64,000 nucleotides of DNA, taken from positions 54,568 to 118,567 of IMG/VR virus record IMGVR_UViG_3300048762_000248; one strand, written 5' to 3'. Numbering within the stretch: the first letter of the stretch is position 1; every line of letters starts with the position of its first letter. Below the pieces are notes generated by a model. That model was not told the DNA's origin and searched no databases. It worked only from the letters and a program-made list of their open reading frames with translations. The DNA is from a virus. The translations under genes were made by a program, and so were the position numbers. This document shows, in pieces, positions 4,958 to 7,336 of this stretch.

Positions 4958-7336
4958 TTATTCAAGCACAGTAATGTCTTTATGTTTGAGTTCTAACATC
5001 TGTTCGATTTTTTCAGCCGGGAAAGCGAAGTCTTCAACTGCCGCATCTGTTACGGTCGCTTTTTTTGCCATCTTTTTGGAATGGAGAATGTAAGTACGAA
5101 CATTAGATGCTTTACCCAAGAACAAGGCAAACAATACACCCGAATTTTTTGACTTCGTAGCTTGGAGAGCGAATTCTTTACGATCCGTCAGGTGTTTGAT
5201 GGCTGCATATTCCGCTTCGATGATTGCAATTAAGTTGTCAATTTTTGTTTCTATCTCATCAAAAAGGGTTTGATACTCTGAAAAATAGGCTAAAATTTCG
5301 CTCTGTTCCCCAAGCTGAATTAACCGGATAATGCGGCGTATTGAAAAGCCATCTTTGAGATGGTGAATAGCACAATAAGTGGGCGATTTAATTTTCAGCC
5401 GTCCAAAATTTCGATCCACGACAACAAATCCTTCTTGAGAAATTGCGTCCAGAGCCAGAGCCGCCTTTTCGATTTGTGAAAGGGTGTTGAGTGGAAATTC
5501 TTTTACTACTGGAATACCGATGTTGACAGTCGATACAGGAATCTCTGGGTAACCGTCACTCGAAATATCACGAACACCGATGAGAGTCAATGTAGGATCT
5601 TTTCCATATTGACAAACGATTCTGTTGTAGAGACTTGTTAACTCTAGAATATAGGTAAAGTGACTATCTAACTGTGAAATTGGGTAGCTCTTCAATGTCT
5701 TCCAAAATAGATCGGAAAAAGTGAAATTAAAATCTCCAACATTGCCACCGGCGTCTGGACTTCCCTTTGTAGAAACTTCCCATGTGCCTTTGTAGTTCCA
5801 TAAGACACACATGCTATTATGACCCATTAAACCTTGAGCCATATAGTTATGTGTGGTTGTTTCAATATCATATCCTACAGAACCAGAAGGCATCGTTTTT
5901 GGTGTTGCTTCAAATTGAGTAATACGACGAATAACGACCGGAACCGATTTGTAACTAATTTGTCCTTGCGGATATGGTTGATATGGAATATTTTGAAATT
6001 CGATTGGTAGTTTATACCGCATACAACTAACAATGTACGGTGCGATCAAATTCCAAAATTCAGAAATGGGTGCTGTTGTTCTGTAGGTTGCCGGATGTTT
6101 TTTATAGTAATAATAAGTTGTGTCACAGCATCCTGTTTTTTGCATAACTTCTTTACAAGAATGTCCGTCAGTGATTAATTGTGTTATTTGTTGTCCGAAT
6201 GTATCTGGTGAAGCGTTGATTCGTATATTTGATCCCTTTGATTCAAAAACAACCGCATCTACTCCGCAGAGTTCGTAGATTTTGTCAGCGAGGCGTTGAG
6301 CATCTTCCTCTGACAGAAAATTGCAAGCAATGGTAGCACGATCTTTTTGCCCATCTGAGTGAGATAACGAACCATTATCCATGAACATAACAGCCAGACT
6401 GAAAGCGTCGATCCATGAAATATCGATGGGAAGTTTGCGCCGGTTTTGTGGATACCATTCTTTACGAAGCGAAGTTAGCGCCGGGGCAGAGATAGAAGAT
6501 ACTTGCGTCATTAAAGAGCCGAAACCACTTACTACATCACGAGAAGCAATAGCAAAATCTCCTAATGACTGCTCAAAAAATGCATTGTATTCCGCATGTT
6601 TTTTGATATGCGAAGTACAAAAACGATATGTTTTTGAGTTTGGACTTAATGAACCATCACCAAGTAAACTGGAACGAATTAAATGAAGAGTTGTTGGATC
6701 AGGTGCTTGAGTATGCCGTAGCATTTCATCACCTACCTGGGCGTCAATAGCCATACGAAATTGACCGTTGATGAAAATTTCATGATTGGGAGTAACAACT
6801 AAAGCTCCTTTACTTTCACCAATCCGATTAGTTTCAATTTTCAACCAATGTCGTTTTTTTCCGTTGTTGAACCAATTTGTAGGTGTACATTTTACAAGAT
6901 TGCCGTTTTTGTCTCTTCCAATCAAATCAGGAGTTAAATGTTTTTGAACTACCTCGCCAATTTTGATCGTCCCGCCACCCCACAAATTCAATAGCGTTAA
7001 ATAGGGATAGCATCCGTCCACTTTTTCCTGGACACGAACATCGGTCCAATCAATCGTGTCGCCCCAGGTTTCTCCTGCGTTTGCAAAACGATAAAATGGT
7101 AAAGCAACGACGGCCCAGTTGTCAGCGGAGTTCAAAATCAAACCACGGCATTCTCGCACGATAGGATTGCCCTTCGGCGCTTCCAACGAATCGTAGCTGA
7201 ATTGATACAGTTCCGGGTAGATCGGATGCTGTTTCGCATAGATGCCGAGTGTGGCTTGCAGTTGCGCCAGACCAGCCAGCGGTTCGCCGCTATTCAGGGC
7301 GGCACCTTCGAGAAAAGCTTGGACTAAAAGTCGCAT
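4958..7336 (-). CDS. rnlA: T4 Rnl1-family RNA ligase interrupted by a LAGLIDADG intein
   Basis: The extein carries ECRGLIL, PFYRFANAGE and the motif-I sequence VQEKVDG, as in T4 Rnl1 ALECRGIMF ... LTKEDGS. A Cys follows immediately after KVDG. The intein shows blocks TPNHEIF, LLGDGSL, FMDNGSL and a terminal YDIETTTHNYMAQGLMGHN followed by S. Confidence 0.8.
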   Translation of the reverse strand: MRLLVQAFLEGAALNSGEPLAGLAQLQATLGIYAKQHPIYPELYQFSYDSLEAPKGNPIVRECRGLILNSADNWAVVALPFYRFANAGETWGDTIDWTDVRVQEKVDGCYPYLTLLNLWGGGTIKIGEVVQKHLTPDLIGRDKNGNLVKCTPTNWFNNGKKRHWLKIETNRIGESKGALVVTPNHEIFINGQFRMAIDAQVGDEMLRHTQAPDPTTLHLIRSSLLGDGSLSPNSKTYRFCTSHIKKHAEYNAFFEQSLGDFAIASRDVVSGFGSLMTQVSSISAPALTSLRKEWYPQNRRKLPIDISWIDAFSLAVMFMDNGSLSHSDGQKDRATIACNFLSEEDAQRLADKIYELCGVDAVVFESKGSNIRINASPDTFGQQITQLITDGHSCKEVMQKTGCCDTTYYYYKKHPATYRTTAPISEFWNLIAPYIVSCMRYKLPIEFQNIPYQPYPQGQISYKSVPVVIRRITQFEATPKTMPSGSVGYDIETTTHNYMAQGLMGHNSMCVLWNYKGTWEVSTKGSPDAGGNVGDFNFTFSDLFWKTLKSYPISQLDSHFTYILELTSLYNRIVCQYGKDPTLTLIGVRDISSDGYPEIPVSTVNIGIPVVKEFPLNTLSQIEKAALALDAISQEGFVVVDRNFGRLKIKSPTYCAIHHLKDGFSIRRIIRLIQLGEQSEILAYFSEYQTLFDEIETKIDNLIAIIEAEYAAIKHLTDRKEFALQATKSKNSGVLFALFLGKASNVRTYILHSKKMAKKATVTDAAVEDFAFPAEKIEQMLELKHKDITVLE
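5816..7012 (-). mobile_element. Intein (residues about 109-507) with a LAGLIDADG homing-endonuclease domain, inserted after the KxDG adenylylation motif of the ligase
   Basis: It starts with Cys directly after EKVDG and ends with GHN followed by Ser. Block B TxxH and two LAGLIDADG motifs are present. Coordinates were computed from residue indices. Confidence 0.7.

Follow-up and report, generated by a model that had tools for sequence, protein, structure and literature searches.

A predicted LAGLIDADG intein at the adenylylation motif of an Rnl1-type RNA ligase encoded by a T4-like phage

We analysed a stretch of viral DNA of 64,000 nucleotides (positions 54,568 to 118,567 of IMG/VR record IMGVR_UViG_3300048762_000248; hereafter, the window), which we assign to a T4-like myovirus because it encodes gp5-like and gp6-like baseplate proteins. 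On its minus strand lies an open reading frame (ORF) that runs without interruption over 2.4 kb, ends with a stop codon at 4958-4960 and abuts the stop codon of a 91-amino-acid ORF upstream. As argued below, this gene very probably encodes the 88.8-kDa precursor of a phage RNA ligase, ATP-dependent and of Rnl1 type, into which a class-1 intein with an I-SceI-type LAGLIDADG endonuclease is inserted, directly after the KxDG motif (motif I) that holds the lysine expected to be adenylylated. The precursor and its parts are arranged as follows (coordinates in the window; residues numbered in the precursor unless stated otherwise):

4958..7336, minus strand: complete precursor gene of the T4-like phage, 792 amino acids plus stop, 88.8 kDa predicted
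7013..7336, minus strand: N-extein, residues 1-108, with ECRG at residues 62-65 (7142-7153) and motif I, K105-V-D-G108 (7013-7024), at its end
5816..7012, minus strand: intein, residues 109-507, 399 amino acids, 44.8 kDa predicted, from Cys1 to His-Asn
6692..7012, minus strand: N-terminal half of the Hint domain, blocks A and B, with Cys1 at 7010-7012 and TPNH at 6782-6793
6233..6670, minus strand: LAGLIDADG_2 (I-SceI-type) homing endonuclease core, with motif 1, LLGDGSL, at 6647-6667 and motif 2, FMDNGSL, at 6365-6385
6374..6376, minus strand: Asn321 (intein residue 213), opposite the catalytic Asp145 of I-SceI in a hidden Markov model alignment
6074..6202, minus strand: 43-amino-acid insertion in the endonuclease domain, residues 379-421, with three predicted short helices resembling a helix-turn-helix (HTH)
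5816..5959, minus strand: C-terminal part of the Hint domain, with blocks F and G, YDIETTTHNYMAQGLMGHN, at 5816-5872
4961..5815, minus strand: C-extein, residues 508-792, with the +1 Ser508 (5813-5815), motifs III, IV and V and a helical C-terminal domain
5642-5644, minus strand: motif III of the C-extein, E565
5429-5434, minus strand: motif IV of the C-extein, E635-G636
5387-5395, minus strand: motif V of the C-extein, K648-x-K650

The strings on which an initial annotation of this ORF had relied, namely ECRGLIL (residues 62-68), PFYRFANAGE (residues 80-89) and EKVDG (residues 104-108), are all present. Cys109 stands directly after Gly108, and the far end of the insert reads ...GLMGHN/SMCVLW (a slash marks the junction). 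A search over ~5.8 billion proteins for relatives of the precursor returned an identical protein in a 118,567-bp Joint Genome Institute (JGI) metagenome contig, close relatives that contain the intein (P0002-P0004; 62-77% identity) and close relatives that lack it (P0008, P0010 and P0011). The intein-containing relatives read RVQEKVDG/CYPY...GHN/SMC(V or I)LWNY, and the intein-less ones read RVQEKVDG/SMMIFWNY or RVQEKVDG/SLMILWHY; in the DNA of the intein-less contig L006 the same junction is ...CAGGAGAAGGTTGACGGT/TCGCTGATGATC.... Because the intein-less relatives read EKVDG/S uninterrupted, both intein junctions are fixed to the residue; from these contiguous sequences it follows that the insert is exactly 399 residues long, as had been annotated, and that the +1 serine is the native serine of the ligase's own KxDGS. 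The in-frame insert, of the kind by which a class 1 intein is recognised, is precisely missing from these orthologues as well as from 23 of 23 more distant IMG/VR relatives, in which KxDGS is intact. The GC content of the insert (0.39), C-extein (0.40) and N-extein (0.53) is not diagnostic of a foreign origin, and a promoter and terminator scan of 3500-10000 was uninformative, with counts not above those of shuffled sequence. Megablast of the gene and of window positions 1-25000 against 50,697 phage records returned zero matches; as the phage is without a close sequenced relative, genomic context was drawn from metagenome contigs.

Upon removal of the intein in silico, the joined extein (393 amino acids; 44.0 kDa predicted) matched PF09511 (RNA_lig_T4_1) along the full profile (positions 1-227 of 227; E=5e-12; 46.5 bits, cut-off 28.3) and PHROG 562 (E=2e-41). 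The unspliced ORF gave no match to PF09511; without such removal in silico, the ligase escapes gene callers and domain scans. Alignment of the joined extein to T4 RnlA, a check proposed with the initial annotation, runs through motifs I, III, IV and V: over residues 48-327 of T4 Rnl1 (2C5U) the two proteins share ECRG, FxN, KxDGS, the motif III Glu, EG(F/Y)V and KIKS, with K105, D107, G108, E565, E635, G636, K648 and K650 of the extein opposite the T4 KEDG, E, EG and KIK. In an alignment of 39 relatives, R64, N86, K105, D107, G108, S508, E565, E635, G636, K648, K650 and Y654 are invariant, and we equate them with the positions that mutational work of the Shuman laboratory showed to be essential in T4 Rnl1. 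A profile of the 39-relative family matched T4 Rnl1 (E=1.6e-33) in two stretches that coincide with the two exteins and reach T4 residue 340. The precursor was modelled in full with AlphaFold 2 (AF2) from 39 sequences (mean predicted local distance difference test score 82.9); the model has an all-helical region at residues 652-752 and was matched by Foldseek to T4 Rnl1 (2C5U) at E=2.3e-8 over 261 columns, with template-modelling (TM) scores against Rnl1 kept low by the three modules of the query precursor. T4 RnlA (RNA ligase 1, gp63; 2C5U, 5TT6) thus resembles the extein in belonging to PF09511, in motifs I (KxDGS), III (E), IV (EG(F/Y)V) and V (KxK), in the N-terminal ECRG and FxN, in the helical C-terminal domain and in its T4-like myovirus host, but the T4 enzyme is only ~20-23% identical to it and carries no intein. 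Judged from these alignments, the extein, in which motifs I, III, IV and V are all preserved, is a distant ligase of the Rnl1 (T4 RnlA) type.

The insert carries the residues of a class-1 splicing domain: C1, T74-x-x-H77 in block B, D382 in block F, the penultimate H398, the terminal N399 (all in intein numbering) and the +1 Ser, each kept in 64-65 of 65 homologous inteins. The Cys1, the GHN/Ser+1 and the block B string TPNHEI that had been read from the sequence beforehand were all found in it. Many homologues of the intein carry precomputed PF14890, PF05203 or PF01079 matches. Family-profile and fold comparisons were used where the Pfam and NCBIfam splicing-domain models fell below threshold. 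The family profile matched the C-terminus of the NrdJ-1 intein (blocks F and G; E=1.7e-6), the N-terminus of the Npu DnaE intein (blocks A and B; E=3.6e-4) and PI-MtuI (E=6e-3). Against the PDB, Foldseek matched the AF2 model to the homing-endonuclease intein TliVMA (7QSU; E=2e-10), to PI-SceI (6.6e-6) and to the splicing domain of the Mtu RecA intein (2IMZ, 2IN0), which superposes with a TM score of 0.6 and a root-mean-square deviation of 1.5-2.6 Å. In sequence and in the predicted model, the insert is a canonical-looking class-1 intein with a Hint fold, from which we infer protein splicing. Along the canonical class-1 pathway, the Hint domain would fold after translation, Cys1 would undergo an N-S acyl shift at Gly108, the resulting thioester would be attacked by the hydroxyl of Ser508 (+1), and the terminal Asn507, assisted by His506, would cyclise and free the 44.8-kDa intein, after which an O-N shift would yield the native peptide bond of ...EKVDG-SMCVLW.... 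Splicing would in this manner reunite motif I, with Lys105 as the predicted site of adenylylation, and motifs III, IV and V; since they come together only then, ligase activity would depend on it. The spliced 44.0-kDa enzyme would then be expected to seal 3'-OH/5'-phosphate RNA ends, like T4 RnlA.

Set within the splicing domain is the endonuclease. The insert matched LAGLIDADG_2 (PF03161) at E=5e-16 (59.7 bits; Pfam cut-off 25), the family profile matched I-SceI at E=1.8e-19, and Foldseek matched the model to I-SceI at E=4.5e-10 with a target-normalised TM score of 0.66-0.69. Both LAGLIDADG motifs can be aligned to those of I-SceI (LAGLIDADG_2; 1R7M, 5A0M), with which the intein shares the endonuclease fold, although I-SceI is free-standing and intron-encoded. 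The scores for the extein and for the insert lie well outside what chance would give, all three modules (ligase, splicing domain and endonuclease) are borne out, and the initial annotation was right on the anatomy in full. As DNA, the intein is a selfish homing element, whose endonuclease would be expected to recognise the uninterrupted coding sequence of motif I in intein-less alleles of co-infecting related phages, and repair would then copy the intein in.

The distribution of the intein among related contigs bears on such mobility. A conserved string of genes (ligase, IMPDH/GMP-reductase-like, CTP_transf_like, AAA and peptide deformylase) is common to the intein-less contig L006 and the intein-containing contigs. 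Yet the extein of the intein-containing P0003 is 83-84% identical to those of the intein-less P0008 and P0010 and 73% identical to that of the intein-containing window allele. One homologue, P0031, is a product of decay, a 188-amino-acid mini-intein derivative from which the endonuclease is deleted. In these comparisons the presence or absence of the intein does not track extein relatedness, which is an indirect sign of mobility. The ratio of nonsynonymous to synonymous substitution (dN/dS), estimated by the Nei-Gojobori method in a codon analysis of the window allele, P0002, P0003, P0010 and P0011, was 0.066-0.083 for the intein and 0.08-0.2 for the extein. The proportion of synonymous differences (pS) was 0.64 for the intein and 0.78 for the extein (window vs P0002 and P0003), values of which only the direction of the difference is reliable, with dS near saturation in the window comparisons. 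Patchy presence and strong purifying selection together fit an intein that is kept by selection while being gained and lost among related phages, as in a homing cycle.

Several observations weigh against reading the gene as the precursor of an RnlA-like ligase with a splicing and homing intein. Firstly, the spliced extein scored 48.3 bits on NCBIfam TIGR02308, the T4 RnlA equivalog, below its cut-off of 242.25, and because this cut-off is missed, the substrate specificity of T4 RnlA cannot be assumed for the extein. Secondly, the single-sequence splicing-domain profiles stayed below threshold (PF14890, 12.5 vs 35.8 bits; TIGR01445, 15.8 vs 24.5 bits). The initial annotation had held that splicing blocks missed by profile analysis would speak against an intein; with the single sequence the scores do stay too low, but the family profile reaches blocks A/B and F/G of validated inteins. 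Thirdly, the endonuclease has an Asn in place of its second catalytic acidic residue. The two LAGLIDADG motifs that had been annotated are there, as LLGDGSL and FMDNGSL, and the first keeps its catalytic Asp (D119 of the intein), but the second has N213 in place of the catalytic Asp, so that only one of the two acidic residues is found. In I-SceI, whose catalytic pair is D44 and D145, D145 is one of two metal-binding Asp residues, and in engineered LAGLIDADG enzymes an Asn at that site usually abolishes or alters cleavage. Because of this Asn, classical homing through a double-strand break is not assured for the window allele.

The weak splicing-domain scores speak for the possibility that the insert does not splice and has left only a broken remnant or pseudogene of the ligase. 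We consider this very improbable, given that the ORF is intact over its whole length, that all splicing nucleophiles and assisting residues are conserved, that alleles with the intein show no variation at the catalytic residues of the extein, whose dN/dS is as low as given above, and that the same arrangement is kept in at least 71 Rnl1-type protein clusters.

The Asn bears on a different alternative, in which splicing works but this subclade's endonuclease has ceased to cut both strands in the classical manner and acts instead as a strand-specific nickase or as a non-cleaving DNA binder with another role. Nicking endonucleases occur in phage introns. Of 65 family inteins, 59 have Asp at the residue equivalent to I-SceI D145, whereas the clade P0001-P0004, whose four members include the window allele, has Asn; the MDNG variant recurs in P0083, P0090, P0105, P0127 and P0134. 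The 43-amino-acid insertion, a second difference from I-SceI, follows the last beta-strand of the endonuclease and precedes its C-terminal helix, gave weak HTH matches (CENP-B_N, E=0.03; HTH_23, E=0.12) and is specific to the same clade: it is seen in P0001-P0004, and nearly all other matches from a search of 50%-identity representatives align in two stretches with a gap there. Both oddities are under purifying selection (dN/dS of 0.05-0.07 for the endonuclease domain and 0.07-0.14 for the insertion, at a synonymous divergence of ~0.4-1.5), which argues that the altered endonuclease is selected and not decaying. The list of Foldseek matches also includes WhiA, a non-catalytic LAGLIDADG protein that likewise carries an HTH domain. 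On the other hand, the first catalytic Asp and the remainder of both motifs are intact, the patchy distribution and the lower pS of the intein fit continuing mobility, and Asn may be tolerated in this scaffold. Weighing both sides, we regard loss of classical cleavage as a possibility worth keeping in view, though clearly the less probable one, and prefer an intein with a homing endonuclease. More tentative still is the proposal that the window subclade has a remodelled endonuclease which either is a natural LAGLIDADG nickase that homes via a nick or is a DNA binder nearing domestication, as in WhiA.

Elsewhere in the window (16668-17417, minus strand) lies a free-standing LAGLIDADG_2 gene (249 amino acids; PF03161, E=2.5e-21). 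It was considered as a source or relative of the intein endonuclease and rejected, since BLASTP found no significant similarity between the two.

We then followed the intein family beyond these close relatives. A sensitive search with the intein alone of 1.84 billion representatives (50% identity) recovered 449 proteins at E<=1e-10. The clusters mentioned above, at least 71 of Rnl1 type among 202 proteins retrieved, carry a homologous intein at KxDG/C, and many other family inteins occupy KxHG/C or KxNG/C of PF09414-type RNA ligases. An ATP-dependent DNA ligase (P0058) provided a single case, as did another ligase site, GEWAG/C. By sequence search, inteins in RecA at VMFG/SPETT are more distant members of the same family; they differ in host protein and target motif and are ~25% identical to the ligase inteins. 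Two giant proteins, P0118 (3174 amino acids) and P0128 (3248 amino acids), also contain a homologous intein, at a junction that does not look like that of a ligase, with GKIDGAL on one flank.

Inteins of this family are already present in phage proteins deposited in GenBank. Those of Mycobacterium phage Bobby gp147 and its relatives (Phoebus, Dallas, Beem and KashFlow) are homologous to the window intein (23-24% identical over the full length), have the same I-SceI-type endonuclease and share its site directly after the motif I Gly (KLHG/C...VHN/S), but the Bobby host ligase is of PF09414 type and its intein is 357 amino acids long, lacks the HTH-like insertion and has a canonical second motif, YMDDG. 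A homologous intein (27% identical) occurs in gp164 of Pseudaeromonas phage vB_PpeM_KLEP7, named 'intein-containing RNA ligase' by its depositors, where the extein is of PF09414 type and the site is GEWAG/C, downstream of an intact KIHG motif I. An RNA-ligase host (IPR021122) is also listed as new in a preprint on actinobacteriophage inteins (2025; 10.1101/2025.01.02.630785). Our literature search for an intein in an Rnl1-type ligase found no paper describing one. The rarity implied in the initial annotation was therefore overstated, with at least 71 Rnl1-type clusters interrupted at the same site and phage RNA-ligase inteins already in GenBank and in the 2025 preprint. As far as the sequences go, the system is of a known type, one of a widespread and partly annotated family of inteins in ligase motif I. 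What it adds to the literature is the Rnl1 ligase, at its adenylylated-lysine motif, as a further combination of intein host protein and site and, together with its relatives, the case of a single intein family that occupies one and the same catalytic motif across three ligase-superfamily branches.

Relationships within the family were examined by bootstrap neighbour-joining of 65 inteins over 351 columns, an analysis that is distance-based only and whose sample is biased by the mode of retrieval. In 99 of 100 replicates, all Rnl1-hosted inteins grouped with the PF09414-hosted P0038, P0041, P0043 and P0044, whose exteins consist of an OB domain and PF09414, apart from the other family inteins. 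No replicate contained a clade of only Rnl1-hosted inteins, and none placed these four with the remaining inteins hosted by PF09414-type ligases. The pattern points to one or more transfers of the intein between ligase families via their shared motif I. On account of this grouping, we lean, with some reserve, toward a lineage of inteins specialised in nucleotidyltransferase motif I (KxDG, KxHG or KxNG) that has switched hosts among Rnl1-type ligases, PF09414-type ligases and a DNA ligase. The family offers a usable natural data set on host-protein switching through shared nucleotide-binding motifs. In practice the consequences are minor, although the intein or its endonuclease could serve as a source of splicing or nicking tools. 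In our view, what deserves further study is the remodelled endonuclease, together with the apparent host switching.

The ligase had also been placed in an RNA-damage counter-defence toolkit, together with a large tRNA island and a PrfH-like factor, an idea that can be extended to an intein which marks or regulates the ligase, for example by conditional splicing. The tRNA island is real: it spans 21961-48854 and holds 20 tRNA genes, 19 on the plus strand and one on the minus strand (tRNA-Ser cga, 42475-42566), with five tRNA-Leu and four tRNA-Ser among them and many interspersed small ORFs without a family match. Repair of tRNA by Rnl1 requires end healing by the T4 polynucleotide kinase/phosphatase (Pnkp), whose gene, pseT, is close to rnlA in T4 itself. 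A tblastn search with T4 PseT of the 64-kb window and of 5 kb past its left end gave nothing significant (best E=0.09, at 3184-3405, a weak match that falls in a 169-amino-acid ORF without a Pfam match), and the Pfam results obtained for the genes of the window (64 kb of a 118-kb contig) include no kinase/phosphatase family and no RtcB. The Pnkp partner that marks T4-type tRNA repair was thus not found in the window. As for the supposed PrfH-like factor, the RF-1 domain protein at 23156-23683 (plus strand; 175 amino acids) consists of the end of a PCRF domain and an RF-1 domain and resembles the C-terminal half of RF1; it scored 147-148 bits on RF1 (prfA) models, below their own cut-offs, and 59.9 bits on the PrfH model TIGR03072 (cut-off 166.65), and therefore fits RF1 better than PrfH. 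It adjoins an ATP-dependent DNA ligase gene (PF01068; 23769-24935, plus strand) downstream, and not RtcB.

The neighbours of the Rnl1-type ligase itself (radical SAM, GMP-reductase-like, nucleotidyltransferase, AAA and deformylase genes) are not RNA-repair genes. The intein is missing from syntenic relatives and so appears dispensable for the locus, and nothing suggests redox- or stress-gated splicing. T4 RnlA is a tRNA-repair enzyme (PMC7824862), which, along with the tRNA genes and the RF-1 domain protein, speaks for the toolkit, but taken together these observations leave it unsupported, and we judge it improbable, if less so than a gene that has lost its function. As a selfish element targets conserved codons, its presence says nothing of the use of the host enzyme. 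A role of the ligase in tRNA repair remains a presumption carried over from T4 at the level of the family, to which the intein adds nothing, and the finding leaves knowledge of phage RNA repair unchanged.

On the 3' side of the ligase gene, the minus-strand region 555-4764 contains two radical SAM genes, at 3727-4764 (MoaA-like, 93 bits) and 2037-3101, three small ORFs without a Pfam match and a GMP-reductase/IMPDH-like gene at 555-1589 (minus strand). Both radical SAM genes are absent from the syntenic contigs L006 and L007 and present in L010. Another radical SAM gene, the third of the window, lies at 46575-47834 (plus strand); its product has a SPASM domain. The AAA gene of the conserved string shows a second presence/absence polymorphism in this phage group: in contig L007, which carries P0002, the orthologue of the gene just past the left end of the window (5981-9454 of L007) encodes a 1157-amino-acid AAA protein with an intein of its own (Hom_end_hint / LAGLIDADG_3), and orthologues without an intein have 803 amino acids in the window's contig (L003) and 808 amino acids in the contig that lacks the ligase intein (L006).

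The genome looks rich in free-standing mobile endonucleases. Besides the LAGLIDADG_2 gene, the window has three paralogous Endonuclease_7 (PF02945) genes (10856-11548, 19283-19900 and 45369-45956, all on the plus strand) and several HNH genes, one of them (26841-27560) inside the tRNA island. Other genes of the window include an OmpA-domain protein of 615 amino acids (14882-16729), an ABC-transporter-like pair (17453-18232, with a faint permease match, and 18232-19191, ABC_tran), and a 406-amino-acid protein with four DUF4379 treble-clef zinc-finger repeats (58328-59548, minus strand; E=1.6e-73). An 840-amino-acid protein encoded at 42745-45267 (plus strand) has a precomputed match to the major vault protein shoulder (PF11978; Vault_3 faint), which is unusual for a phage.

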